UHGV virus genome: UHGV-0200663
Direction: 5' to 3' (one strand)
Length of the DNA stretch: 35,660 nucleotides
DNA from: a virus
Shown: positions 1,070 through 16,892 of the stretch, in pieces
Numbering within the stretch: the first letter of the stretch is position 1
Layout: the number at the start of each line of letters is the position of its first letter
Program-made: the position numbers and the translations under genes
The notes under the pieces: model-generated
The model's database searches: none
Told to the model about the DNA's origin: nothing
The model's input: the letters and a program-made list of their open reading frames with translations, nothing else

Positions 1070-1672
1070 TTAATCACCGACAGTTAACGCTCTCACCTCG
1101 TCCAGTATGGACAGCCGGGAAAGCTGCTCCTTCATTTCACGCTGGCGCTGATAAATCCCGTCATTGCGATCGACCTGTGCCTGCGCCATTGCTGTCGCCA
1201 GTTCTTCCAGTTCCGGCATTGACAGTTTCACCTGTTGATTATCGGCGTCACCCCACGTCATCACGTCCCGCGCTGTGTCAGATTTCGCCGCCATTACCAC
1301 AGGATAAAGACGGGCCAGTGAGTCGGGGCCAGCGTTCCAGGTGCGACCGTTCCATTCGAACGTGAACGGCTGCGCTTCCTGTTCTGTGCGCCACGCCTCG
1401 ATTTCCATCTTTTTGGCATCTTTTGCCGCTGCGATAAGCTCCGGCGTGATGGTGAACGGGGCGATTTCGCCCCATTTGCCGCTTTGCAGTTCCTGCCAGA
1501 TGCGCTTACCGATTGTTGATGTATCATCAGGAGTGGCAGTGTAAGGGACTGGCTGCGGCTGGCCGTCAAACCAAACGTCACAGTCTACAGCGCTATTTTC
1601 TGTATAGCGGGGATTAATGATTTCTTTGATTTCCACGATGCATTCCTCACGCTGTGCGAATAAAAAGCCCAA
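1070..1672 (-). CDS. Tail fibre assembly chaperone (second cassette)
   Basis: Immediately downstream of the long fibre gene. ORF-track start at 1672 is TTG; a GTG at 1636 preceded by GAGGAA is a plausible true start. Family call is by position and size only. Confidence 0.5.
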   Translation of the reverse strand: MGFLFAQREECIVEIKEIINPRYTENSAVDCDVWFDGQPQPVPYTATPDDTSTIGKRIWQELQSGKWGEIAPFTITPELIAAAKDAKKMEIEAWRTEQEAQPFTFEWNGRTWNAGPDSLARLYPVVMAAKSDTARDVMTWGDADNQQVKLSMPELEELATAMAQAQVDRNDGIYQRQREMKEQLSRLSILDEVRALTVGD

Positions 1673-4600
1673 TCATCGCGTCGGAACCATAGGTGTTTGT
1701 TACCCCGGACAGGGCGCGATATGTACCCGGTAATGAATGACCTGCATTTCCCATAACGTAGAATTGCGGGCTTGATGAATACGTTCCGGCTGGATTGTAG
1801 GGCGCTGAAATTCCCACCGGCCCCAGCCGTGAGCCTGCGTAATATTGCCCTCTCACAAGCTTGATTTTTGTATCTCCGTCAGTCGTTCCCTGGTATGCAG
1901 CAATAATCAGTCCACCAACATCAGGGTCTCCCCACTCATTGCTGATGGTCCCCCCCATAACATTATAAATATCGGCTGTGGATATCTTTATTCGCTCCCA
2001 GCCAACAAGACGCCCGTAAATATATCGGTTAAACCAGATATCACCGTTTCCTGCATAAAACATTATGCATTTTGCAGCATCTGACGGGGGCTTTGTTTCG
2101 TACTGGTTCATCTGCCAGATAACATCAAGAATACCCGTAAAATAAACACCAGGTATGATTGTTCCCTGATTAGGGACGGTTACCGCATAACGTCCCGGAT
2201 AAGCGTTTGTTACCCACGTGGTCAGCTCCGATGTGTTTTTAAAGGTGAGCTGGTCTTCTTTTCCAAACGGATAACCAAATCCGAATGCACCAGGAAGAGC
2301 CAGTTTATCTTCCGCCCGGTCATAAATATCACTCTGGGCGCTGTACGTATTCTTTTGCAACTCAAGAACAGACAGCATGTCTTCCGCTGTAGTCTGAGCA
2401 AGCAGCAGCCGGGCTTTTTCTGACAGTGGAGACAGTGAAGCATTCCCGTCCTGATTAAAGCACAGAAGATTATCTGCCCGTTGCGTCAGTTCACTGATAG
2501 CCGTCAGCACATCGTTCAGCGGTTGTTTACCGGCCAGCGCGTTCATGATTGTCGTCGCAAAGTTCGGGTCATTACCCAGCGCCGCTGCCAGCTCGTTCAG
2601 CGTGTCCAGGGCTTCCGGTGACGAGTCAACCAGTGCAGCAAGCAGTTTGCGGACAAACGCCGCATTGGCTATTTCATTACCTGCTGCATCATCTGGTGGT
2701 GTTGGCGTGGACGGCGTTCCGGTCAGTGTCGGACTGTTCAGTGGCGCACGGGTTTCAATCAGTGCCCGGAGTGAAACCTCGTTGACTTTCAGGTTTTCCC
2801 AGCCAACCAGATAACCATCTCCGGTAGTCCAGTAGCGATTGTAATAAATGTGGCCGTTAATACCGTAAAAAATAATGATTTTAGCCACACATGCCGGATT
2901 GGGGTTGGTTTGAGGTTCCGGCCAGATAATTTCAACGGTACCCTTGAACAGCACGCCCTGTATTACCGCATTTGTATCTGCATAAACGGCATAGCGTCCG
3001 GGTTTTGCCGTTTTTACCCAGCGGAGAAAATCGGCCTCTGTTTTAAACTCGGTCCTGTCGCCGCTGGAAAATATTTTCCCGAATCCGAACATGCCAGGAA
3101 CCGCCAGACGGCCTTCGGTGCGGTCGTAAATACTCTCCTGCGCATCCTTTTGTGCTGCATTGCCCAGTTGTGGCGTCAGATTCGTCCAGGTGACCGGGGC
3201 GGAGATATTATCGCCACGAACGGTCATAAGAATCCGTCCGTCTTTTCCAAAGAACAGAACCAGCTTTGTTGCTGTCTGACTGGTTTTGTCGCCCCGGCCA
3301 TTATCCAGCCAGATAATTTCTGTTATTCCGGTTGTTTTTTCCGTTTGTGTGGAAAAGGTGTAATACCGTCCCGGGTGCAGGTTGTGAGCGGTTCTGGCTA
3401 CAGTCGCCATATCGCTGGCAATAATTGAACGTGCTCCGGCGTCCGTCATTCCGTAACCATACGCACCGGGAAGCGCAACACGGCCTTCCATGCTGTCGTA
3501 AAGGTCTATCTGAATATCCCTTACCGCTGCGCTTTTCAGCTCAAGCTCATTGCGCATGGCTTCCGCTGTGGCCTGTGCCAGCAGTGACCGGGCTTTTTCT
3601 GACAGCGGAGACAATGAAGCATTTCCGTCATGATTAAAGCACAGAAGATTATCTGCCCGTTCTTCCAGATTACTGATTGCGGTTAACACGTCACTGAGTG
3701 GTTGTTTACCCGCCAGCGCGTTCAAGATTGTTGTCGCAAACTCCGGGTCATTGCCCAGCGCCGCTGCCAGCTCGTTCAGTGTGTCCAGGGCTTCCGGTGA
3801 CGAGTCAACCAGCGCAGCAAGCAGTTTGCGAACAAATGCCGCGTTCGCCATCTCCAGCCCGGTCGCATCGTCCGGCGGGGTTGGTGTGGTGGGCGTGCCG
3901 ATGAATGCCGGGCTGTCCAGTGGCGCTTTTGTTTTCGTCTCGTCCATGACGGTTTTGACGGCTTTTGGCGTGGCGGCCAGTTCTTCGCTGTCGTTGTCTG
4001 TATCACTACAGAGTTGCACCAGGCCTTTTTGCGTCGTGCTGGCGTTGGTTCCCTTCAGGTCATCAACTATCCGTTGCGCCTCGTCCCTGTGCTGTTTCGC
4101 GCTCTGCTCGCTTTTTGCTGCCGCTTCGGCGCTGGCTTTTGCCTCACCGGTCAGCGTTGCGGCATCAGCAAGTTTATCGACCGCTTTCTGGACTATCTTA
4201 TCGGCATCTTTGACCGCCTGTTCTGCCCGGGCGGCATTCTGGTTGGTCTCAGAGGCCAGCTCTTCAGCTTTCTGCACATTACCCGCGATTTCTTCTGCAT
4301 CCTGCTGTATTTCCCCGGCGAGCGCTTCTGTATCCTGGCGGGCCTGTTCAGCAGCGGTGGCGTGCTCTCCTGCTTTTTCTGCGCTTTGCTGCGCCTGTTG
4401 CGCCAGCTCTTCGAATTTCTTCAGGGCTTCCGGGCGCAGGTCAATATCGGTTGCGCCCAGAAAATCATTCAGCGAACCGTCCGCTGAATCTTCATAAACG
4501 CGGATGACACCGATTTCTGAAAGGCGCTGTGTGCTTTGTGTCAGGCGAACGCTGTACACACCCGGCAGAACGGTGAAGTCATATTCCCCGTTCTGTGTGG

Positions 4601-4721
4601 TGACATGGCTGAAAACACTTTTCAGAATCCCTGCACGGTTGTGCAGGGAGGTCAGTGTAATGGTTGCGCCACCCAGCGGTTCTCCCGTGGGCGTTTTAAT
4701 CACACCTTTAAGCTGCGGCAT
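1647..4721 (-). CDS. Long tail fibre protein, lambda Stf / P2 H family, with internal repeats
   Basis: N-terminus (..GVYSVRLTQ..IRVYEDSADGSLNDFLGA..RPEALKKFE) resembles the lambdoid side-tail-fibre N-terminal domain. Two copies of ATPKAVK..KAPL.SP..GTP.TPTPPDD..ANAAFVRKLLAALVDSSPEALDTLNELAAALGNDP..ATTI.NALAGKQPL. Three xxEGRLAxPGxFGFG modules. ATG at 4721 with GGAG 8 nt upstream. Confidence 0.8.
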   Translation of the reverse strand: MPQLKGVIKTPTGEPLGGATITLTSLHNRAGILKSVFSHVTTQNGEYDFTVLPGVYSVRLTQSTQRLSEIGVIRVYEDSADGSLNDFLGATDIDLRPEALKKFEELAQQAQQSAEKAGEHATAAEQARQDTEALAGEIQQDAEEIAGNVQKAEELASETNQNAARAEQAVKDADKIVQKAVDKLADAATLTGEAKASAEAAAKSEQSAKQHRDEAQRIVDDLKGTNASTTQKGLVQLCSDTDNDSEELAATPKAVKTVMDETKTKAPLDSPAFIGTPTTPTPPDDATGLEMANAAFVRKLLAALVDSSPEALDTLNELAAALGNDPEFATTILNALAGKQPLSDVLTAISNLEERADNLLCFNHDGNASLSPLSEKARSLLAQATAEAMRNELELKSAAVRDIQIDLYDSMEGRVALPGAYGYGMTDAGARSIIASDMATVARTAHNLHPGRYYTFSTQTEKTTGITEIIWLDNGRGDKTSQTATKLVLFFGKDGRILMTVRGDNISAPVTWTNLTPQLGNAAQKDAQESIYDRTEGRLAVPGMFGFGKIFSSGDRTEFKTEADFLRWVKTAKPGRYAVYADTNAVIQGVLFKGTVEIIWPEPQTNPNPACVAKIIIFYGINGHIYYNRYWTTGDGYLVGWENLKVNEVSLRALIETRAPLNSPTLTGTPSTPTPPDDAAGNEIANAAFVRKLLAALVDSSPEALDTLNELAAALGNDPNFATTIMNALAGKQPLNDVLTAISELTQRADNLLCFNQDGNASLSPLSEKARLLLAQTTAEDMLSVLELQKNTYSAQSDIYDRAEDKLALPGAFGFGYPFGKEDQLTFKNTSELTTWVTNAYPGRYAVTVPNQGTIIPGVYFTGILDVIWQMNQYETKPPSDAAKCIMFYAGNGDIWFNRYIYGRLVGWERIKISTADIYNVMGGTISNEWGDPDVGGLIIAAYQGTTDGDTKIKLVRGQYYAGSRLGPVGISAPYNPAGTYSSSPQFYVMGNAGHSLPGTYRALSGVTNTYGSDAMIGLFIRTA

Positions 4722-5238
4722 CGGGACGCTCCGGCCAGTTGATGGAGTAAAAGGAGGCTTCGTCAGTAACGGTGCTTAAATCCAGAGCCTTTACCGCTTT
4801 GATATATGCCATCCACTGCGTAAGACGCGCTTTATCATCGTCGCTGATGGTGCCCAGCTCCAGCTCGGTTTTCCAGTCGGAGGTGATGTCCTTCGCTTCA
4901 TTCAGCAGGCTCTGGCGTTGTTTTTCTGCCAGTTGCGAATAATCAACAGGAACCGGCAGCACTTCGCCGTCTTTGTAATACCAGCAGGCTTCAATGCCAA
5001 AACCTTCCGGCAGTTCATCCACTTCCACAATGGTGAAGCCAGCCGGATAAAGACGGGACACGTCTTCCGCCATTGAATAAATCACGCCGGTTTCCGGGTG
5101 AATACACAATTTGTATTTCTTCGTGAATTTATCCAGTGATTCATAAAAATCCTGTCCGTCTTCACTGCGGAAATACTGAATGTTTTCACCATAAGGCATC
5201 TCTTCCGGGTAATAACGCGTGACGTTTCTGAGTTCCAT
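4708..5238 (-). CDS. Tail fibre assembly chaperone (U-like, first cassette)
   Basis: C-terminal ..FYSINWPERP motif typical of tail fibre assembly proteins. ATG at 5238 preceded by AAGGAG; the ORF-track start at 5274 would overlap the upstream gene. Confidence 0.65.
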   Translation of the reverse strand: MELRNVTRYYPEEMPYGENIQYFRSEDGQDFYESLDKFTKKYKLCIHPETGVIYSMAEDVSRLYPAGFTIVEVDELPEGFGIEACWYYKDGEVLPVPVDYSQLAEKQRQSLLNEAKDITSDWKTELELGTISDDDKARLTQWMAYIKAVKALDLSTVTDEASFYSINWPERPDAAA

Positions 5239-5252
5239 TATTTTCTCCTTAA

Positions 5253-6062
5253 TTAGCCGGATACCGTGCGCCATCCGCCATTGATATAAATCTGAGTTTG
5301 TTTGTAATACACGCCGCCGATGTTATCCGCAGAGCTCCTGCCAGTATCCTGAACGTTAATACCTGACAAAATACAACCTGAAGGCGCGCGAAATACCCAG
5401 GAAATTTCGTTACCACCGGGATTGTGAAACACTTCGCTGGTGTATCTGAAATCACGCACAGCGCCGGAATCGGTGCTGCTGATGGTGATATCGCTGGTGC
5501 CATCAAACAGCACATTGTTAATCCTGCGGGCCGTCTGAAGCCGGGTTGCCGTTCCGGCATTGCCACTGATGTTGCTGATGGTGATATCCGAAGACAGGGC
5601 CATGCCGTTGACCCTGCGGGTATTCGGTACAGCACTATTAGCTTTATTTACCGTGTCACGTAATGAAAGTGCGTCGATAATTTCACTGGCTGTGTTTTTC
5701 CCGAGAATACCGCGCACAAAAGCACTGAGCGGCGTTAATGCCATTGTGTCTTCGCCCGTAAAATACGGGAACGTATTATTCTGACCGGTTAATCCGGCAA
5801 TAGCTCCGGCTGAACCACTGTTCGTAATAAACAGTTTTTTCAGCGCCGTCATAATCTGGTCGGTGGTGTTTTTATCCGGTTTGATATTTGCCTGCCGGAG
5901 AATTTCCAGCAGTTCGGACTGAATAATATTAAACCAGTCCGGCCCCGGATAGGTGGGCGGAATACCATTCCCGCCTTCGGTAAAATAAAGCGTTGTTTTG
6001 CTTAATTCAGCCGCGACAGGTGGCATCACCGGCACACCCGTCGGATTATCCACATGAAACAT
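5253..6062 (-). CDS. Short tail fibre protein (Mu S / P2 H-like)
   Basis: N-terminus MFHVDNPTGV...; internal FPYFTG motif and C-terminal ..YINGGWRTV resemble P2 H / Mu S family fibres. ATG at 6062 with GGAG upstream. Confidence 0.65.
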   Translation of the reverse strand: MFHVDNPTGVPVMPPVAAELSKTTLYFTEGGNGIPPTYPGPDWFNIIQSELLEILRQANIKPDKNTTDQIMTALKKLFITNSGSAGAIAGLTGQNNTFPYFTGEDTMALTPLSAFVRGILGKNTASEIIDALSLRDTVNKANSAVPNTRRVNGMALSSDITISNISGNAGTATRLQTARRINNVLFDGTSDITISSTDSGAVRDFRYTSEVFHNPGGNEISWVFRAPSGCILSGINVQDTGRSSADNIGGVYYKQTQIYINGGWRTVSG

Positions 6063-6065
6063 AAA

Positions 6066-6650
6066 TTATTCTCCGGTGTAATAATATTCATATTCCGTGC
6101 CCGCCAGCCGGTAATGCTTCAGCAGGCATTCCAGCTCGCGGGTCCGTTCACTGATTAATGGCGTCATGACGTCATCAATACAGGTAAACCGCCCGGCATC
6201 TTTATCCGGGACTTCCACTTTCAGCATCCAGCGATACCGCGCCGGATGCAGCGGATACATGCAGTCGCGCAGGCAGTGGTGCGGCAGAACGGCCGTCACC
6301 TTGATGGTGAAGCCCAGCGCCGCCGCAGCGGCTTCAATCTGCCAGGTTGCCAGCCCGCCCTTGCGGCGGTATTTCTCCACCACGGCCCGGCGGCGGGCTT
6401 CCGTTGTGGTGGCGGCAATTCCGCATTCCGGTAGCGCCAGATATTGCTCCCACTCCGGCAGCAGCTGGAGCGTGGTTTCCGGTCGCATCTCCACATGCAG
6501 ACGCGAGGCGTCGTATTCAACGCGGGTTAAACGCTCTGCAAGCGCCCTTAAAAAACGGTTTAAATCCGCGTCGTTATCACGCGGCCATGCCTTACCCCGT
6601 GGCATGACCTGTTGCAGTGCGGTCAGCCATTCCGTCACGCTGTGAGCCAT
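6066..6650 (-). CDS. Tail/baseplate protein (Mu gp48-like)
   Basis: Position between baseplate J-like gene and fibre gene; ATG at 6650. Family call by synteny. Confidence 0.5.
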   Translation of the reverse strand: MAHSVTEWLTALQQVMPRGKAWPRDNDADLNRFLRALAERLTRVEYDASRLHVEMRPETTLQLLPEWEQYLALPECGIAATTTEARRRAVVEKYRRKGGLATWQIEAAAAALGFTIKVTAVLPHHCLRDCMYPLHPARYRWMLKVEVPDKDAGRFTCIDDVMTPLISERTRELECLLKHYRLAGTEYEYYYTGE

Positions 6651-7711
6651 GTCACCTCCCCGATGGTGATAAGCTCATCCACATCACTGGTAGTGTCTTC
6701 CCCGATGTTCAGGAAGTAGTCCGCGATGCCGGACGTCATACCGATGGCCGTGCGCAGCGAGGACACCGGCAGCATCTGACCGGGGGCCAGCGTTTTCTGT
6801 AATGCGGTCAGGTTTGCCCGGACGGCGTTCCTGTTCGCCTGGCTGTCCGGTGTCAGACGGATGGACAGGTCGAGTTTCTTCAGTCTGACCTGTACCGGCC
6901 AGACCTCGATGCCGCCCGGTTTGCCCACCATCACGCCGGTGGCAGGGTGTTTGTGGCAGAACAGATACTGCTCCATTGTCTTCAGGTCGTCGCGTGTGGG
7001 GATAATGTCTTCACGGTCATCATAAAGCCATGCCAGCCCGACCGTGCCGGGGCCGTGCCACGCATCCCACGCCCACGCGCGGCTGACACCCGGCACTTCA
7101 CGCGCCCAGATGACGTAATCATGCAGCGCACCGCCCACCGGGGGATTGCGGCGCACATACAGCAGACGGTCCAGCAGCTCTGCGATGGATTCGATATCTG
7201 CGCCGCCGGTGATGCCACTTTCAGTCACCGCGCCCGTGCTGCCCGTTCCGGGTAGCGGGGACAGCAGGGTCAGCACGGCACCGGCAGCAAGATTGCCCGC
7301 CACACCGGCTTCTTCAGCCTGCACGATGACGGTGACCTCGCCGTCCTGTACCTCGCCGGATGTGAGTACCTGATACACCTGATTCGTGTCGGACTGCATC
7401 CGGGTTTCTGCCGGAATGGGGGACTGACTGGTGAAGGTCACCGGCCCGCTGGCAAAGGTTGCCTGCTTGCGGATAACCCCTTCATACGTTGCTGTTTTGA
7501 TAATGGTTTCATCATCAGATGCGGTGGACGGGATTATCTGGTCCTTAATCCAGCTCTGATGGTCGTATAAATCCCGGACCTGACTGCTGAACGACACGTT
7601 CAGCGCCTGCTCAACACTGACAGGCGGCAGCTTTTGCAGACCGAGTTCATACGCAATATCTTTCTCGCCGTCGGCAATCAGCTTGCCCAGCGTGGGGATT
7701 TCATACGGCAT
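6635..7711 (-). CDS. Baseplate J-like protein
   Basis: 358 aa; size and position in baseplate module match Mu gp47 / P2 J-type baseplate proteins. Confidence 0.6.
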   Translation of the reverse strand: MPYEIPTLGKLIADGEKDIAYELGLQKLPPVSVEQALNVSFSSQVRDLYDHQSWIKDQIIPSTASDDETIIKTATYEGVIRKQATFASGPVTFTSQSPIPAETRMQSDTNQVYQVLTSGEVQDGEVTVIVQAEEAGVAGNLAAGAVLTLLSPLPGTGSTGAVTESGITGGADIESIAELLDRLLYVRRNPPVGGALHDYVIWAREVPGVSRAWAWDAWHGPGTVGLAWLYDDREDIIPTRDDLKTMEQYLFCHKHPATGVMVGKPGGIEVWPVQVRLKKLDLSIRLTPDSQANRNAVRANLTALQKTLAPGQMLPVSSLRTAIGMTSGIADYFLNIGEDTTSDVDELITIGEVTWLTA

Positions 7712-8153
7712 TAATGGTGGCCTCCCATCGGCGGGTGATTTCGATTGTGAGCGTGGTTTTGTCCGGGCGGGTTAACACCACCTGAAAGGCAATACGGTCA
7801 GGGACAATGATTCTGGCCGTGACGGCGGCGTTACGGGCGTAACCGGCCCGCAGCAGCGGTTGCATGGACAGCCGCGCGTAATCTTCCACACGCAGGCGAA
7901 CATCTTCCGTCAGCTTTTCGCGTTCAAGCAGCCACAGGCGGGAACCCCACGAAAAATCGCTGTACGTGTCGCCCGGCCAGCCGCGCGGGTCGCCGGAACC
8001 ATCAGGAATGACATCATCGTCATCAGCGCGGGCATCGGTGAAAAGGCAGATAAGAACCTGAGTGACCAGCCCCTCATCCCGTGAGAGGCCGTTATGGGTG
8101 ACGGTGATGTCACCCCGTGAGAGCATGTTATTCCAGCGGATTCCTGTCGTCAT
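7701..8153 (-). CDS. Baseplate assembly protein (Mu gp46-like)
   Basis: 150 aa, between spike-like and J-like genes; start overlaps upstream stop. Confidence 0.5.
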   Translation of the reverse strand: MTTGIRWNNMLSRGDITVTHNGLSRDEGLVTQVLICLFTDARADDDDVIPDGSGDPRGWPGDTYSDFSWGSRLWLLEREKLTEDVRLRVEDYARLSMQPLLRAGYARNAAVTARIIVPDRIAFQVVLTRPDKTTLTIEITRRWEATINAV

Positions 8154-8686
8154 ACGGGCGGTGATGTATTCTCATTGTCGCCGTCCTTATGAATGTGTTT
8201 GATGAATGATTTACCGTTGATTCTGACATCTTCAGTAAATTCACAGGGACCGACGAATTTCATTTGTTTACCGATAATATTCAGCAATTCGTCGGCGGTG
8301 AGATTTACCGTTTTCCCTGAAACGTTTAATTGTTCTCCTGTGATTTCAATAATACCGCCTTTCTTTAACGTGATATGCGATTTACCGTCCTGGTGATACA
8401 GCCGGACATCACCGGGGGACAGGCCTTTCGGGCGACATCGCTTGTCCTCCACCGCGATGGCAACCAGCCCGTCACGCCGTCCGCCCACGGCCAGCACGAT
8501 GGCTTCAGAACCTTCCGGCGGAACGGAAGTAAACCCGTAGTTCTGGAAGCGTTCCACGTCGTCATCGGTGGCATCTGCCAGTGTCTGGATTTGCAGGTTC
8601 TGCCGCTCCAGACTGTCAGACACCATGCGCACAACGGCACGGTCAACCAGCAGCCGCAGACGGCGGGCAATGGCGTTTAATCCCAT
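8150..8686 (-). CDS. Baseplate spike / V-like protein (Mu gp45-like)
   Basis: 178 aa; position in baseplate module. Confidence 0.5.
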   Translation of the reverse strand: MGLNAIARRLRLLVDRAVVRMVSDSLERQNLQIQTLADATDDDVERFQNYGFTSVPPEGSEAIVLAVGGRRDGLVAIAVEDKRCRPKGLSPGDVRLYHQDGKSHITLKKGGIIEITGEQLNVSGKTVNLTADELLNIIGKQMKFVGPCEFTEDVRINGKSFIKHIHKDGDNENTSPPV

Positions 8687-9747
8687 GTGGCCACCGCCTT
8701 TGTTTTCTTCGTCTTCGCTTTCATTTCCGGCATATCCAGTGATTCAGGCGGAACCAGCGCCAGAACCGTCATCCGCCCCTGTGCGCCATCCGTCCAGGTC
8801 ACCCCGGATATCAGCCAGGTGGTTTTCAGGTTCTGAATGCTGTCGTCGATATCGACAAGGCGGTTGGTCTGCCACAGCGGGCCGCTGTCGCCCTGTTCGC
8901 GCCAGCCTGCCACCGTGATTTCCGTCGTGCGGGATTCCCCCAGCATCCGGGCTTTGTACCATTCCCCGCGAATGCTGGCCCCGCCCACGGTCAGGCTGTC
9001 TTCATTGACCAGAATGCGCGGGCGGTAACGGTTAATTTCCGGGTCTTCGATGATGTACTGGCGACCACCCACCATCGAGGCAGGCTGGCTGTCCCACAGT
9101 TTGCCACCGGCACTGGTGGTGCCCTTGATGATGTACTGGCTGTTACGCTCCCGCCAGCTGAAGCGCCCACGGGCAGCGAGGATATTTTTCCCCAGCACCA
9201 GTGACACACCCGCGCGAACGGAAGAGGCGCGGGTGATAATCAGGTTACCTGCGCCGTCAGACGTCAGCAGAACGCCGCGCTGTTTTGCCAGCCGGTCGAG
9301 CAGTTCAAAGCCCGTTTCACCCTGTTCCAGAACAACGGACGCAAACGCCTCCCCGGTCGGGGTTTCCGTGATGACAGTTATCCCGAACGGGCGGCAGACA
9401 TCAGCCGCCACCTGTTCAAGCCGCACGCCTTTCCATTTCCCGGACGAATGCACCACAGAGCAGTCCACCAGGTCGCCGGTTTTGTCGCGCCCCATGACAC
9501 GAATTTCCACATTGTCCGCGTCATAGCTGGGAATAAAATCATCGATATACCCCGTCAGCACGGTATCCGCGCCCAGCCTGACCGTGCAGGGTTGCCCCTC
9601 ACGAATCACGCGCGGTGCCGCCGCTGACCAGCGGGTTGTCACACTGAGTTCAAATTCACCGGCAATCGCCTTCAGGGAACGGCTGATGGACATTTCCGTC
9701 CAGCCTTCCCACAGCTTGCCGTCAACGGTAAGAATCACGGATTCCAT
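8677..9747 (-). CDS. Tail/baseplate hub protein (Mu gp44-like, P2 gpD-like)
   Basis: 356 aa; follows the DNA circularisation-like gene as in Mu. Confidence 0.55.
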   Translation of the reverse strand: MESVILTVDGKLWEGWTEMSISRSLKAIAGEFELSVTTRWSAAAPRVIREGQPCTVRLGADTVLTGYIDDFIPSYDADNVEIRVMGRDKTGDLVDCSVVHSSGKWKGVRLEQVAADVCRPFGITVITETPTGEAFASVVLEQGETGFELLDRLAKQRGVLLTSDGAGNLIITRASSVRAGVSLVLGKNILAARGRFSWRERNSQYIIKGTTSAGGKLWDSQPASMVGGRQYIIEDPEINRYRPRILVNEDSLTVGGASIRGEWYKARMLGESRTTEITVAGWREQGDSGPLWQTNRLVDIDDSIQNLKTTWLISGVTWTDGAQGRMTVLALVPPESLDMPEMKAKTKKTKAVATWD

Positions 9748-13297: not shown

Positions 13298-13654
13298 TCA
13301 CACCTTCACGCATTTTTCACCGATAAAGTTGGCACTGATGGTGCCGGAATCCTCGTCCAGCTCCGCCGGGTTATCCGTGGCGGAACCCGTCATCATGTAG
13401 TTCAGGCCATTGTCGCCGTAGAACATCACCGTGACGTCTTCCCAGCTGCTGATTTCAATCACGTCCATATCCGCAGCCGCCGCAATGGTCACTTTGATGG
13501 ACGGCGAGGCCATCTTGCTGGAGACGCCCCAGACCTTGCCGCCGCCCATATGCTGGGTGCGACTGAAGCCGCCCGGATTCAGCGTGGATTTCCCCTCGGT
13601 TTTAATTTCGCGGCCATTCACGCGAATGGTCGCCATGCCAAGAATTTTTGCCAT
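13298..13654 (-). CDS. Tail tube protein
   Basis: 118 aa immediately downstream of sheath gene. Confidence 0.6.
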   Translation of the reverse strand: MAKILGMATIRVNGREIKTEGKSTLNPGGFSRTQHMGGGKVWGVSSKMASPSIKVTIAAAADMDVIEISSWEDVTVMFYGDNGLNYMMTGSATDNPAELDEDSGTISANFIGEKCVKV

Positions 13655-13663
13655 GCGGCCCCC

Positions 13664-15139
13664 TTAAAGTTTGAACTGAATCAGGCCTGCCAGCACACGC
13701 AGCTGGTTCACCAGATTCGGGTGGCAGATAAAGTTCAGGCGGTTTTTATCGCTGCTGTCGCGTGTCACCTGAAGCGTGTCCTTGTAATCGCTGAAGTTCT
13801 CCACAAGGCCCGCAGGAATAAGTTCGGTCTGGCAGATATCCAGCAGCTCTGCGGTGCACAGCTTCGGCGTCATCACCGGCTGACCGGCATCCAGTGAGTC
13901 CAGCACGTCATCATCTGCCAGCTTGTGGCGCGGATAACGGTTCGTGAAACGATTTTTGATGATGTAACGGATACGGCCCAGCGTGGCGGGGGACTGCACA
14001 TCCAGGTACGACACATCCGCATCACCGTACTGATTAACCCGGTACATGGTGATTTCACGCTCGATGCAGACGTTATCCCCGGCGTCCACCATGTGCGTGG
14101 CAATGCCGTCATGCAGCAGCAGGTTACGTTCCGGCATATCCCAGCGAACATTACGCGCAGGCGGCAGAATGCCGGTCAGGACCAGCGTCTGAAGCGGACG
14201 CGCCGGGTCAATGGCAAGGTGATACGCTGCCGTTGCGCCGTATGACGCGGCCCACATCCACGCCGGGTGCGGTGACAGGTTGGTGCCGATACAGCTAATC
14301 AGCCAGTCATTGCGGGTTTCACCAAACGTACCGGTTTCCCCGTGTGTGCCACGAAACGCCGTCCACAGCTGCGCCTCCATCATTTTGAGCGGCCCCCAGC
14401 GGTTCAGCAGTTCATCACGCAGGGTGTTCAGGCTTTTCGTGTCGGTGAACGGGGCGATGATATCGGTAAACCACTCCGGGCCGATGGCCGCAACGGCATC
14501 CGCCATTTCCGGTGTCCCGGTGCCGCCGGTAAACGCAGTAGCGGTCACCTTCACACCTGCCGGGAAGGCTTCACCGGTGTAGTAGTTCAGGCGAACGTCG
14601 GCACCGTTGCCGGTGACGCCGTGCCAGTTCACGGTCAGCTCCACGGTATCCGTGGCATCATCCTTCACCGCAGCGGCCACCTGCGTGGCAGGCTTTTTCG
14701 TCACCGCATCAGCAATGGCTTTTGCAATGTTTTCCTTCGTAGCCCCGGCGCTCACGCTCACCTGAACGGACACACCGTTAATCAGCAGTGCCACCGTTCC
14801 GGCTTCAGTCGCTGTACCCAGCACGGTCAGCGTGGCTTTTGCGGCAGCGCCTTCAGGCGCGGCAACCGGCATTGCCCAGGTTTCCGTGTACGTGTTGGCA
14901 CGGCGCAGCATTTTGAGCATTTCAGCCAGCATCGACCCTTTGCCATAAAGCTGGTCTGCCTGGCTGTCACTGGTGATGCGGGTCAGTGACAGGGCGTCTG
15001 CGCTGCCGGACGATACCGCATGGCCCATGACCAGAATTTTTCGGCTTTGCGCGGATGCACCATCCAGCGCCTGAGAATTGTCGATATCGATCCAGACAAG
15101 CGGGACGCGGATATCAGCAGGAATTGAACCCAGCGACAT
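13664..15139 (-). CDS. Contractile tail sheath protein
   Basis: 491 aa; position and size as Mu L sheath. Confidence 0.75.
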   Translation of the reverse strand: MSLGSIPADIRVPLVWIDIDNSQALDGASAQSRKILVMGHAVSSGSADALSLTRITSDSQADQLYGKGSMLAEMLKMLRRANTYTETWAMPVAAPEGAAAKATLTVLGTATEAGTVALLINGVSVQVSVSAGATKENIAKAIADAVTKKPATQVAAAVKDDATDTVELTVNWHGVTGNGADVRLNYYTGEAFPAGVKVTATAFTGGTGTPEMADAVAAIGPEWFTDIIAPFTDTKSLNTLRDELLNRWGPLKMMEAQLWTAFRGTHGETGTFGETRNDWLISCIGTNLSPHPAWMWAASYGATAAYHLAIDPARPLQTLVLTGILPPARNVRWDMPERNLLLHDGIATHMVDAGDNVCIEREITMYRVNQYGDADVSYLDVQSPATLGRIRYIIKNRFTNRYPRHKLADDDVLDSLDAGQPVMTPKLCTAELLDICQTELIPAGLVENFSDYKDTLQVTRDSSDKNRLNFICHPNLVNQLRVLAGLIQFKL

Positions 15140-15339
15140 TATTTTTTCCCTCTGGTTTGGTTGTTATTTTTCGGAAGTGCGGTTATTTCCACATCTCCCT
15201 CAGCTTCACGGCGCAGCCAGTAAGCGCAGACGTCGAGACGTTCCCCTTCCGGGGATAAATGCGCGCCATCCGGTTTACGGACACGGACGTTTTCCCGCGC
15301 TGGCTTAATCAGTTTCTGTTCCATCGTCACCCCGTACAT
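15139..15339 (-). CDS. Small phage protein (Mu gp38-like position)
   Basis: 66 aa, ATG start, coupled to neighbours. Confidence 0.4.
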   Translation of the reverse strand: MYGVTMEQKLIKPARENVRVRKPDGAHLSPEGERLDVCAYWLRREAEGDVEITALPKNNNQTRGKK

Positions 15340-15916
15340 GGATCACGTCGTTAATTTCAGTGTGTTCACCGCAGCGCAGCGTTGCCCCGAGGCGCAGGAA
15401 GTCCGGGAGCGCGGCGAGATCAATCTCTTCATCCAGCCGGAATTCCTGCTCCCACGTCACCGCCCACATGGTGACACCCAGCCCGTCGAGGCTGGCGGAA
15501 TAAATGTTGTCTGCCCGCACATCAGCAGCCAGGCGTTCAGCCCCCATGGCCGCTGTGGCATCCGACGACAGCAGACGTTTGATCACCTTTCCGGCCAGTA
15601 CTTCACAGCGCACGTCGCGGGAATACCCCCACGAATCCGTTGCCATGATGTAAGCCACCCAGGTAACCAGACCGGACAGCCCACCGCGCGGGTTGATATC
15701 CCGGACACGCAGGGCAGCTACCCGGATACAGCCGGTGCGACCGGACAGATAGCGCTTCACCTCTTCCGGGCTGTTGAACTGGCCGATGTGACGCTCCACC
15801 ACGTCGGCCCGGTCAGGGGTTTTCCCCTGAAGTGCTGTTTTCAGCCAGGCTACAATGCGCTCTGCGGCCGCAACGGTGCTCCCCGGAGTGCGCAGTTCAG
15901 GGCGTTGTTCTGTCAT
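15305..15916 (-). CDS. Head-tail region protein (Mu gp37-like position)
   Basis: 203 aa; synteny only. Confidence 0.45.
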   Translation of the reverse strand: MTEQRPELRTPGSTVAAAERIVAWLKTALQGKTPDRADVVERHIGQFNSPEEVKRYLSGRTGCIRVAALRVRDINPRGGLSGLVTWVAYIMATDSWGYSRDVRCEVLAGKVIKRLLSSDATAAMGAERLAADVRADNIYSASLDGLGVTMWAVTWEQEFRLDEEIDLAALPDFLRLGATLRCGEHTEINDVIHVRGDDGTETD

Positions 15917-16455
15917 GGCAGAACCTCCTTCCAGAAATGACTGATAACCTGTTGCAGCTCCTGCTGGTTGGCAGAAGACAGCCCCAGAAATTCACGTTGC
16001 GGAATGTTCATCATGCGGTTATGTGCGCCGACGGTCTGCCAGACCGGATATTTCAGCGCCCGCCCGAAACACTGCGAGATAAGCCGTTTGTGGGCGCTGA
16101 CCGGCACACTGCCGGAAAAGCCGTCATTCATGATGCGGGCATAATCCAGCGGTGAACCGATACGCACCACGCGGTTTTCCACGATGTACTGGATACTCTC
16201 CAGCAGATGGCCTTCACCGCGCAGCAGACTCTGGTTGCCGTGGCGGGTCTTTTTGTACCCGTCAGACCAGTCTGGCCAGCGTTCGCCACCCGGACTGGTT
16301 TTCTCATCGATGATGCGGCGGCGGGTCTGTGATTCCACCACCGCACCGATGCTCTCCAGCAGCTCTGCCTGCAATGAACCATCTGCCAGCTTTTCAACGG
16401 CGCGGCGGATATCCTCCAGACGCTGGTCACCGCTGACCTGTACAGAAATCCCCAT
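15913..16455 (-). CDS. Virion morphogenesis / tail completion-like protein
   Basis: About 180 aa; ATG at 16455 in ATGA overlap with upstream stop (ORF-track start at 16458 is GTG). Confidence 0.45.
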   Translation of the reverse strand: MGISVQVSGDQRLEDIRRAVEKLADGSLQAELLESIGAVVESQTRRRIIDEKTSPGGERWPDWSDGYKKTRHGNQSLLRGEGHLLESIQYIVENRVVRIGSPLDYARIMNDGFSGSVPVSAHKRLISQCFGRALKYPVWQTVGAHNRMMNIPQREFLGLSSANQQELQQVISHFWKEVLP

Positions 16456-16892
16456 CACAGCACCCCTTTCAGGTTGTTACGGGTGAACAGCCGGGCATTG
16501 GCACCCACTACAATGATCTTCCCGTGGTCGGTTTCTGCCGGGGTGGCATACGTCGGCAGACCCAGGTCACGGGTGCCGTTCGCCATCTCACGCAGGGTTT
16601 TAATGGCGTCATCGTAGCGTTTCTGGATCAGCTCCGTGATTTGATTGTCACGCTCTGACAACCAGTAAAACGCCAGCGATACCGCCACGCGTTGCAGCGG
16701 GCGCGGGATTTCCGTCACCCCCAGCGGCAGCTGGTAGCGGCGGGACAGAAACGAATCAATTTCCGCTTCGGCATCACTGATGGCCTGACGGATTTTGTCT
16801 TCATCCAGTTCGTTGGTTTCCCGGTTAATCGCCATGTTCCAGACAAGATTGCCGTCCGCGCGTAACAGGTCTTCCTGCGTGATATACCCCAT
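16455..16892 (-). CDS. Head-tail connector region protein (Mu gp36-like position)
   Basis: 145 aa; ATGA overlap coupling. Confidence 0.45.
   Translation of the reverse strand: MGYITQEDLLRADGNLVWNMAINRETNELDEDKIRQAISDAEAEIDSFLSRRYQLPLGVTEIPRPLQRVAVSLAFYWLSERDNQITELIQKRYDDAIKTLREMANGTRDLGLPTYATPAETDHGKIIVVGANARLFTRNNLKGVL

Follow-up and report, generated by a model that had tools for sequence, protein, structure and literature searches.

Gene content of the element and of its tail region

The window analysed here, that is, the whole stretch of 35,660 nucleotides from the virus genome UHGV-0200663, encodes MuA, MuB, Gam, gp41, a DNA-circularisation protein and Mom, and an ORF at 761-973, adjacent to the Mom gene, matches the Com annotated in relatives (relatives' annotation and tblastn). 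The sheath, the tube, gp36, the portal and the major head protein T are all encoded as well. The proteins of the element were 25-48% identical to Mu proteins where BLASTP matches exist, and its gene content makes it a complete Mu-like transposable prophage with a contractile tail, distantly related to Mu. All the neck, tail and fibre features described below lie on the minus strand (-).

The neck block (15305..16892; Pfam and PHROG assignments) contains the genes for a gp36-like adaptor (16455-16892), a Phage_tail_S protein (15913-16458) and a 203-aa protein (15305-15916), and the families recognised in it are PF07030, PF05069, phrog_195, phrog_26 and phrog_490. The PHROG family of the 203-aa protein bears the label 'portal protein', as does gp37 in the Mu record, and this shared label is the single basis for suggesting that the protein may be the gp37 terminator. 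No PDB entry matched the neck proteins of the window by sequence, those for the necks of XM1 and Mu included. The genes of the tail tube (13298-13654) and of the contractile sheath (13664-15139) make up the region 13298..15139 (PF10618, PF04984, PF17482), and the Mu-type baseplate genes, in the window order gp48, gp47, gp46, gp45, gp44, occupy 6066..9747 (Pfam; 31-41% identical to their Mu counterparts). These gp44-gp48 homologues, together with the sheath and tube genes, agree with the Mu-like contractile-tail virion proposed in a preliminary description of this DNA. All the tail and baseplate ORFs mapped to Mu-type families, and none of them matched the lambda gpV or gpM family.

Next to the baseplate genes lies the gene of a 269-aa short fibre (5253..6062), whose residues 1-81 match residues 1-81 of Mu S (5yvq/9ki1, E 1.4e-21) and whose C-terminus matches the short tail fibre 9cuy (E 3.8e-13). 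Its N-terminal 134 aa were 91-96% conserved in relatives and its tip was variable; by its matches it is the canonical baseplate fibre. The Caudo_TAP chaperone of the short fibre (4708..5274; PF02413, E 8.8e-22) comes next, and its stop overlaps by 14 nt the start of a second, long fibre gene (1647..4721), an intact ORF with an ATG start that encodes 1024 aa, contains PF08400 and PF03406 and belongs to PHROG tail-fibre families. The long fibre is followed by its DUF4376 tail-fibre chaperone (1070..1672; PF14301, E 3.5e-17), which is conserved downstream of the StfN fibre in relatives and in Rac-SA53. The listed TTG is probably not where this chaperone gene really starts; its start codon would lie further downstream. 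At this same genome end Mu carries the G segment and gin; neither an invertible G segment nor gin was found in the window, and the second fibre cassette occupies that position.

Domain organisation of the long fibre

The long fibre begins with a StfN anchor, or collar, domain (aa 1-95, 4437..4721) recognised by Pfam, by PDB matches, by an AF2 model with Foldseek and by an identity matrix. In the AF2 model a low-confidence linker (aa 91-96) then leads into an Ala/Glu/Gln-rich alpha-helical stretch (aa 96-225, 4047..4436), which is presumed to form a trimeric coiled coil. A single Phage_fiber_2 (ATPKAVK) repeat follows (aa 228-267, 3921..4040; PF03406, E 1.2e-15); BLASTP aligns it over 41 aa with residues 355-395 of lambda orf-401, at 68% identity, and Mu S also matches the long fibre around it, at aa 215-269.

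The remainder of the protein is built from modules and knobs. Module A (aa 263-396, 3534..3935) and its duplicate, module B (aa 656-789, 2355..2756), are 134 aa each and 82% identical, both as protein and over 394 nt of DNA. Their full form reads APLxSP..GTPxxPTPPDD..NELAAALGNDP..NALAGKQP..LCFNxDGNASLSPLSEKAR, with APLDSP in module A. The corresponding lambda stf region was 49-52% identical to the two modules (52% to A), and a tail collar fibre of Bxb1 (9d93_La) was a further match of module B (E 1.2e-10). The preliminary description had counted two copies of a combined ATPKAVK/NELAAALGNDP/NALAGKQP repeat; the NELAAALGNDP/NALAGKQP module does occur twice, but the ATPKAVK unit is present once only.

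Knob domain 1 (aa 401-517, 3171..3521) shares 29% identity with both knob 2 and knob 3 (E between 1e-14 and 5e-14), and knob domain 2 (aa 518-648, 2778..3170) is 46% identical to knob 3 (E 3e-33). The AF2 model of knob 2 had a pLDDT of 62.8, and a Foldseek search with it gave the R2 pyocin fibre 6cl6 as the top match, which was not significant (E 0.17). Knob domain 3 (aa 790-915, 1977..2354) has diverged from the Rac-SA53 fibre (36% identity), as has the C-terminal tip (aa 916-1024, 1650..1976; 33% identity), presumed to be the receptor-binding end. The tip finishes in a ..GLFIRTA motif common to relatives, and every relative, at lengths from 443 to 1040 aa, has ..LF(V/I/M)R.. at its end.

Homology and fold of the anchor domain

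In the preliminary description the first ~100 aa were likened to the lambda Stf attachment domain, a claim staked on similarity to Stf-type domains in a profile search. That similarity was found: PF08400 (phage_tail_N) matched aa 4-130 with an E of 1.5e-26 and a score of 93.4 bits, where the cutoff is 26.6, and aa 3-114 were 38% identical to the N-terminal part of Stf, lambda orf-401 (BLASTP, E 1e-15). Searches of the PDB with phmmer gave the Ur-lambda StfN 9e7m_Ta (E 6e-10) and XM1 7kjk_A3 (E 5.6e-8 over aa 3-146), and these two, lambda StfN (39% identity) and the XM1 N-terminal domain (27%), were the only homologues of solved structure detectable by sequence. The AF2 model of the anchor, of moderate confidence (mean pLDDT 68.5), is a six-strand beta-sandwich (strands 3-7, 19-27, 37-41, 46-50, 54-62 and 66-75) with a short helix at 84-88. 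It superposes on 9e7m_Ta with a target-normalised TM of 0.85 and an rmsd of 2.1 A (Foldseek E 1.6e-6), and XM1 7kjk was matched with an E of 1.2e-6. The third-best fold match, a weak one, was the neck-fibre anchor of the myophage A-1(L) (E 1.3e-3, TM about 0.5). In the monomer model residues 91-96 have a pLDDT under 50 and residues 98-134 form a helix, which is consistent with the layout of lambda Stf, where the linker is at 92-101 and the coil begins at 102, and with that of XM1 gp40.

The long fibre resembles the Ur-lambda Stf (9E7M/9MGH; PF08400) in its homologous beta-sandwich, in the predicted order of parts from linker to presumed coiled coil, and in having both a Phage_fiber_2 repeat and the NELAAALGNDP/NALAGKQP module. 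It differs in its shorter presumed coiled coil, its duplicated module, its three knobs and its tip, in an anchor that belongs to a separate subfamily (35-41% identical), and in a DUF4376 chaperone where the Ur-lambda Stf has Tfa/Caudo_TAP. Both fibres would be accessory to a main receptor-binding device. In lambda this device is the central fibre J and Stf is non-essential; in the window it would be the S-like baseplate fibre, and by analogy the long fibre may be dispensable as well.

With the collar spike gp40 of the Vibrio myophage XM1 (7KJK) the long fibre has a homologous N-terminal domain in common. Behind this domain comes a presumed coiled coil in the long fibre and one of about 100 residues in gp40; the distal part in XM1 is a tailspike and not a knobbed fibre. 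XM1 is also a contractile-tail virion, with one receptor-binding set on the baseplate and another on the neck. The long fibre resembles Mu S and P2 H in the presence of one Phage_fiber_2 repeat and in its place at the end of the tail operon, but a Mu S aa 1-81-type N-terminus, the gp48-docking part, is absent from the 1024-aa protein, in which Mu S matched aa 200-269 (the fibre repeat) only; it is the neighbouring 269-aa protein that has it.

Conservation of the anchor and exchange of the shaft

Among the Mu-type tail modules found in E. coli, Shigella and Salmonella the identity of the anchor ranged from 43 to 99%; with the StfN domains of lambda type and Rac type that were compared it was 35-41%. 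We found it at 87-99% identity in 24 IMG/VR loci, and all the intact ones had the same order: Mu-type baseplate, short fibre, chaperone, StfN fibre. In Mu-type tail modules that have diverged further, from E. coli and Salmonella, the two-fibre order was kept and the anchors were 54-68% identical. The Mu-type, Rac-SA53 and lambda tail modules had one StfN subfamily each, mutually 35-46% identical; the anchor of the long fibre is a Mu-module-specific subfamily, a version of the lambda side-fibre anchor proper to these phages. Its dN/dS was 0.13-0.27 even in the StfN-only truncated variants, indicating that StfN is under purifying selection. In E. coli genomes the gene is often truncated or reduced to a pseudogene.

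The segment of the long fibre common to the StfN fibre of Rac-SA53 (KU052037 tail3; StfR type) extends from aa 161 to 770 (2412..4241), with 89% nucleotide identity to the tail fibre gene of Rac-SA53. At the protein level aa 161-400 were 94-96% and aa 401-790 were 80-84% identical (80-96% over the shaft as a whole), whereas the StfN domains were 40% identical. In 20-aa windows the identity was 0.3-0.6 up to aa ~160, where it rose to 0.9-1.0, and it dropped past aa ~770, which marks the shaft as recently exchanged. Rac-SA53 has the same two-fibre gene order (Baseplate_J, small wedge protein, fibre 1, Caudo_TAP, StfN fibre, DUF4376), and its genome also has genes for the sheath, the hub and a baseplate wedge protein; it differs in its lambdoid regulation and in a tail module that is not of the Mu type. 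One shaft is therefore found on two StfN domains, that of the window and that of Rac-SA53, a natural domain swap that marks StfN as a mounting adaptor.

The long fibre was earlier called a mosaic with a lambdoid N-terminus. It is a mosaic, but the shaft is the exchanged part and the anchor is the piece conserved in Mu-type modules. Nor is PF08400 properly described as a siphovirus-type anchor, because Rac-SA53 encodes a sheath and the myophage XM1 has a homologous domain on its neck. The anchor could still have been imported recently from the fibre of a lambdoid siphovirus, in which case it might be mismatched to this virion and left unincorporated; PF08400 also covers the N-terminal domain of lambda Stf, and the pseudogene or truncated copies common in E. 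coli genomes would fit such an origin. We regard this as very improbable, since no StfN more than 43% identical was present among 50,697 phage records, the anchor is conserved within Mu-type modules and also in the diverged ones, its dN/dS (about 0.15-0.27) is low, and it is the shaft that was recently exchanged. The long fibre is very probably an accessory, StfN-anchored mosaic fibre.

Docking of the long fibre

The question of how a Stf-type anchor docks on a contractile-tail virion, raised when the fibre was first described, is a genuine one. In lambda, 12 StfN domains form a collar around the rings at the gpV/gpM junction of the unsheathed tube; lambda lacks a sheath, and neither gpV nor gpM has a homologue exposed on the virion studied here. 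As no lambda gpV/gpM family was found among the tail and baseplate ORFs and the tail is sheathed, the docking partner of StfN must differ from that of lambda. The baseplate fibre socket is probably not the site. The N-terminus of Mu S docks on loop 133-155 of gp48, with six trimers per baseplate, and in the window the corresponding N-terminus sits on the 269-aa protein. With the gp48 socket served by this separate S-like fibre, the long fibre would have to dock elsewhere, and we consider it likely that it does not use the gp48/Mu S socket.

In the arrangement that we favour, the long fibre would consist of three units: a virion-specific anchor up to about aa 160 (StfN, a flexible linker of ~6-10 residues and the start of the presumed trimeric coiled coil); an exchangeable shaft (aa 161-770) with one Phage_fiber_2 repeat, two lambda-Stf-like modules and two knobs; and a distinct distal knob and tip (aa 771-1024), which the DUF4376 chaperone would fold and on which receptor specificity presumably depends. 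Within each trimer the StfN domains, three in number, would splay on their linkers and lie side by side as a ring, seated on another ring that has the diameter of the tube and is free of sheath. Where the tail is contractile, the exposed candidate for such a seat would be the neck, at the level of the gp36 adaptor/terminator. In XM1, 18 N-terminal domains (6 trimers) sit on the head-completion and terminator rings of the neck, and the A-1(L) domain that the anchor matched weakly in fold is also located on the neck. The XM1 neck includes the head-completion ring gp4; a stopper ring of this kind is not resolved for Mu in the paper on the Mu structure. Neck attachment is shown for XM1 and would hold here by analogy. 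The Yersinia vB_YenM phages have a related sheath and no StfN fibre, and in their gene order no adaptor gene is missing besides the fibre and its chaperone; StfN therefore probably binds core virion proteins directly, and we infer that the neck proteins are the candidate docking partners. A neck fibre would speed or broaden reversible adsorption, while the short baseplate fibre would trigger contraction. Several observations count against the neck: in sequence the anchor is nearer to lambda StfN (39%) than to the XM1 domain (27%), the neck proteins of the window do not resemble those of XM1 or Mu in the PDB, the A-1(L) match is weak, and the StfN model is of moderate confidence. By analogy with XM1, a neck collar specifically is a possibility to which we give slightly less than an even chance; the explanation as a whole, accessory fibre, virion-specific anchor, exchangeable shaft and docking at the neck, seems to us evenly balanced between right and wrong.

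The long fibre might instead be mounted on the periphery of the baseplate or branch from the first fibre, with StfN bound to the wedge proteins gp47/gp48 or to the conserved N-terminal 134 aa of the 269-aa protein, so that the baseplate would carry two fibre sets like phages with branched receptor-binding complexes. The gene lies at the end of the tail operon among baseplate and fibre genes, always directly after the first fibre and its chaperone, and in both the Mu-type modules and Rac-SA53 the StfN fibre gene always comes after gp48, the first fibre and the chaperone; such a position may just as well stem from a physical connection with the baseplate or with the first fibre. The strong conservation of the N-terminal part of the first fibre, with its variable tip, points the same way. 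So does size, for we roughly estimate the fibre at about 55-65 nm and the tail, judged by its tape measure of 597 aa, at about 90-100 nm; a neck fibre would then fall short of the cell in an upright particle, and a fibre of this length fits a baseplate side fibre. Against this, the solved StfN-fold anchors all bind protein rings of tube or neck and none binds a wedge or another fibre, and the layout drawn from the AF2 model, with monomers splayed on flexible linkers, would suit ring binding better than a trimeric socket. Gene adjacency is a weak guide, because variable cargo is also located at this end of Mu-type genomes, as the G segment and gin are in Mu. On balance we think a baseplate mounting rather unlikely. 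StfN could also encircle the sheathed tail at its distal end, directly above the baseplate, in the position that corresponds to that of the lambda collar but in more copies; a set of six trimers would agree with the sheath's six-fold symmetry. In Mu, however, the sheath is 195 A wide over a tube-sized pore of 79 A and reaches 260 A after contraction, so that a tube-sized collar could neither enclose it nor survive its swelling. We estimate that 12-18 domains, at ~3 nm each, would close into too small a ring, and that the ring would be broken on contraction; such a collar has no solved precedent and appears improbable.

Implications for Mu-like phages

The locus belongs to a Mu-like prophage with a normal baseplate fibre and, very probably, a second, long fibre mounted by its own version of the lambda side-fibre anchor. 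It is tempting, though on balance somewhat doubtful, to extend docking at the neck to the StfN-anchored fibres of temperate enterobacterial myophages at large, Mu-like and Rac-like, with the StfN subtype selecting the mounting position. If this were true, the same shaft-and-tip cassette could be placed at the tail tip of a siphophage or on the neck of a contractile phage by the ~100-aa StfN subtype alone, and StfN would be a portable adaptor that selects where a fibre is mounted. The StfN-only variants of 156 aa would then be fibre-less neck collars, and Mu-like phages would have an unrecognised, neck-borne determinant of host range.

Results

The minus strand of the window encoded a complete transposable prophage that resembles Mu, with genes for transposition (MuA, MuB and Gam), head and neck (portal, F, I, the major head protein T and gp36), tail (sheath, tube and gp41) and baseplate (gp43, a DNA-circularisation protein, and gp44-gp48). 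Mom was found at the right end of the window, and an ORF at 761-973 matched the Com gene of relatives. Because the proteins were only 25-48% identical to those of Mu wherever BLASTP gave a match, the prophage was considered a distant Mu relative. A Phage_tail_S gene (P2 gpS / Mu G-like) was localised at 15913-16458 (-), between the gp36-like adaptor gene (16455-16892) and the gene of a 203-aa neck protein (15305-15916); in Mu, gene G, whose record annotation matches the PHROG label of this gene, lies elsewhere in the genome, and G is absent from the list of modelled proteins in the Mu structure paper.

Four minus-strand genes followed gp48: a 269-aa fibre (5253-6062), a Caudo_TAP chaperone (4708-5274), a 1024-aa fibre ORF (1647-4721) and a DUF4376 chaperone (1070-1672). 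The mechanical ORF start of the last one was a TTG at 1672, overlapping the stop of the fibre by 26 nt; this start is probably too far upstream, the relatives being annotated with about 188 aa. Where the window has this second fibre cassette, Mu has its invertible G segment and gin, neither of which was found in the window at the position after gp48.

The long fibre had been described as carrying an N-terminus of the lambda Stf type, and the searches bore this out: PF08400 (StfN) was found at aa 4-130 (E 1.5e-26), and this anchor was 38% identical to lambda orf-401 (E 1e-15) and matched the solved Ur-lambda StfN domain 9e7m (phmmer E 6e-10). Two structure models were made, one of the anchor with moderate confidence and one of a knob with low confidence. 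In the AlphaFold2 model of the anchor (pLDDT 68.5), six strands and a short helix come first, a linker of low confidence follows at aa 91-96, and a long helix starts at aa 98; the model superposed on 9e7m with a target-normalised TM of 0.85 and an rmsd of 2.1 A. Sequence and fold together place the long fibre in the PF08400 / Stf fibre family. This feature is not new, since the NCBI pipeline already labels such genes 'prophage tail fiber N-terminal domain-containing protein'; a full-text literature search found no paper on PF08400 / Stf-type fibres in Mu-like prophages.

When 50,697 phage records were searched with the anchor by tblastn, 365 matched, all below 60% identity and the best at 43%. 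The non-E. coli phage records examined were mostly siphophages with lambda-type tail tips. Vibrio records with StfN were considered as possible XM1-like myophages (XM1 is a Vibrio myophage with a collar spike, gp40, PDB 7KJK) and rejected: one of 47 kb had siphophage-type tail genes, and the tail type of a second (72 kb) was not clear from its genes. In IMG/VR, 24 loci had anchors 69-99% identical to that of the window, 23 of them at no less than 87%, and the gene order of every intact locus was gp43 to gp48, short fibre, chaperone, StfN fibre, DUF4376, Com and Mom. Two further anchors from E. coli and Salmonella (68% and 56% identical) stood behind more diverged Mu-type baseplates in unchanged order. 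Anchor DNA was detected in 46 of 5,426 complete E. coli genomes, with a fibre-assembly gene adjoining it in every listed match. Strains that carry the prophage include STEC1575, STEC346 and ETEC1734; in STEC1575 the annotation gives the fibre gene as a partial pseudogene. Homologous-protein searches with a single sequence or a profile gave only short fragments, all from the same Mu-type clade, and a single-protein scan of one genome per species gave no match. Judged by sequence in this survey of context, which covered the 24 IMG/VR loci, several NCBI contigs and about ten phage records and was no census, the anchor belongs specifically to tail modules of the Mu type.

Beyond the anchor the gene was hypervariable, complete relatives measuring 310-1040 aa. 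The closest shaft match in the phage collection was the fibre of the Escherichia phage Rac-SA53 (KU052037), with identities of 40% at aa 1-95, 45% at aa 96-160, 94-96% at aa 161-400, 80-84% at aa 401-790 and 33-36% at aa 791-1024. One shaft thus occurs on two different anchors, a natural swap whose junction falls within the coiled coil at about aa 160. The preliminary description had proposed a mosaic with a lambdoid N-terminus; the fibre is a mosaic, but the confinement of the anchor to Mu-type modules, the hypervariability downstream and the Rac-SA53 identity profile argue that the anchor is lineage-specific and that the shaft is the part recently moved between phages.

PF08400, earlier called a siphovirus-type domain, proved not to be confined to siphoviruses: a tail sheath gene is present in Rac-SA53 (phrog_205, E 2e-54). 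This phage also has genes for a hub and a wedge / Baseplate_J protein of the baseplate, and its cassette is the same as that of the window (wedge, fibre 1, Caudo_TAP, StfN fibre and DUF4376). Since a complete phage encodes sheath, hub and wedge, the StfR-type 'side tail fibre of lambdoid prophage Rac' appears, judged by the Rac-SA53 genes, to belong to a contractile-tail virion. Relatives of the Rac-SA53 sheath include Yersinia phages named vB_YenM; no StfN fibre was found in the one examined in full, suggesting that this fibre is optional in the Rac-SA53-like tail type too. The Mu-type, Rac-type and lambda-type anchors were about equidistant (35-46% identity), which in sequence terms fits one anchor subtype per virion type. 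A further record, PP818812.1 (vB_Apl-pPE4, listed host Actinobacillus), had a sheath protein 96% identical to that of Rac-SA53 and 89% nucleotide identity to the fibre shaft of the window; it resembles an E. coli Rac-type phage, and the listed host assignment may be wrong.

Of the two-copy shaft repeat described earlier, a 134-aa module (aa 263-396 and 656-789) was indeed duplicated, whereas the ATPKAVK motif was present once, in a single Phage_fiber_2 unit at aa 228-267. The module copies were 82% identical as protein and also over 394 nt, and both matched the lambda stf region (49-52% identity). Three mutually related knob domains (aa 401-517, 518-648 and 790-915) and a tip of 109 aa were also recognised. 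The R2 pyocin fibre, tried as the knob fold, was rejected as more than a hint, its match, the best obtained, being not significant (E 0.17) and the model poor (pLDDT 62.8). At the DNA level the module forms a 394-nt direct repeat inside the fibre gene (3533-3926 and 2354-2747, 82% identity, copies 1179 nt apart), which could drive length change by recombination; no difference of exactly one 393-aa repeat unit was seen among the fibre lengths of relatives (443-1040 aa).

Variant loci were found among the relatives. A complete 156-aa ORF, comprising StfN and about 60 aa more, was recurrent (relatives' loci L027 580-1050, L028 4850-5320, L029 2140-2610, L036 and L037 10001-10471, and L038 4736-5206); Com and Mom came immediately after it, and both a distal fibre and DUF4376 were missing. 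One such protein, P0017, alone represents 33 member sequences. Three distinct alleles differed by few substitutions (5-11 non-synonymous), with pairwise dS of 0.08-0.21 and dN/dS of 0.13-0.27, a ratio suggesting that the 156-aa anchor may be kept without a fibre. The variant is perhaps a fibre-less collar. In E. coli STEC719 (L044, 8532-11109), a Mu-type StfN protein of 301 aa, with an anchor 99% identical and a C-terminus resembling that of the relatives' StfN protein P0021, was followed by a 100-aa ORF, a 456-aa SGNH/GDSL hydrolase, Com and Mom. The arrangement resembles a fibre split into several subunits, of which the distal part would be an enzyme. In STEC719, the Mu-like prophage directly adjoins the tail genes of a Rac-like prophage (L044, 1-7400), as if transposed into it. 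The Rac-like element carries a StfN fibre pseudogene directly behind a P2-like gpD gene. This was rejected as a third, independent contractile context, because its StfN is of Rac type (77% identical to that of Rac-SA53) and the Mu-like prophage lies beside the tail genes of that element.

Discussion

According to the Mu paper, fibre S attaches through its N-terminus to a gp48 loop, and each baseplate carries six S trimers. We found the Mu S N-terminus (aa 1-81, E 1.4e-21) on the 269-aa protein and not on the long fibre, so that the latter is a second fibre needing another site. It lacks a Mu S/P2 H anchor and, unlike the lambda fibre, is unable to use lambda's docking partners: the Ur-lambda collar consists of 12 StfN domains round the gpV/gpM junction of a bare tube, and linkers of about 10 residues lead to four trimeric coiled coils. 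In XM1, 18 homologous N-terminal domains sit on the head-completion and terminator rings of the neck, followed by a coiled coil of about 100 residues, and this phage has receptor-binding proteins in two places, a set at the baseplate and a set at the neck. The anchor matched the XM1 domain (phmmer E 5.6e-8; Foldseek E 1.2e-6), and a PDB profile search with it found no sequence homologues beyond Ur-lambda StfN and XM1; the next, weaker fold matches were in myophage A-1(L), to its neck-fibre anchor, and in siphophage Bxb1, to its collar fibres at the tail tip. In function, the long fibre would come nearest to the collar spike of XM1.

A collar that fits a ring of tube size would be unable to enclose the Mu sheath, which measures 195 A across with a pore of 79 A and expands to 260 A on contraction, and on a sheathed virion the exposed ring of about tube size would be the neck. 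We therefore rank first, tentatively, a StfN collar on the neck. Several points speak against it: the anchor sequence is more like that of lambda StfN than that of the XM1 domain, the fibre gene always lies beside that of the first fibre, the fibre is by our own rough estimate shorter than the tail, and no sequence similarity connects the neck proteins with their XM1 or Mu counterparts, the 181-aa and 203-aa ones having no PDB match at E < 1.

Docking of StfN on the wedge or on the first fibre comes second and seems rather unlikely. Placing the collar on the sheath itself, for which the width of the Mu sheath is too great, is improbable and ranks third, and we give very little credence to the fourth reading, that the anchor is a mismatched recent import.

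Phage-derived particles are already being retargeted with StfN anchors and with chimeras of lambda Stf. The locus shows that anchor subtypes stay with their virion types, and this, together with the shaft swap, offers both a rule and a junction point for exchanging fibres among lambdoid, Rac-type and Mu-type particles. If the StfN collar does sit on the neck, Mu-like phages would gain a second, neck-borne adsorption organelle, and the label 'side tail fibre of lambdoid prophages' given to the StfR family would need revision, because Rac-SA53 itself encodes a sheath.
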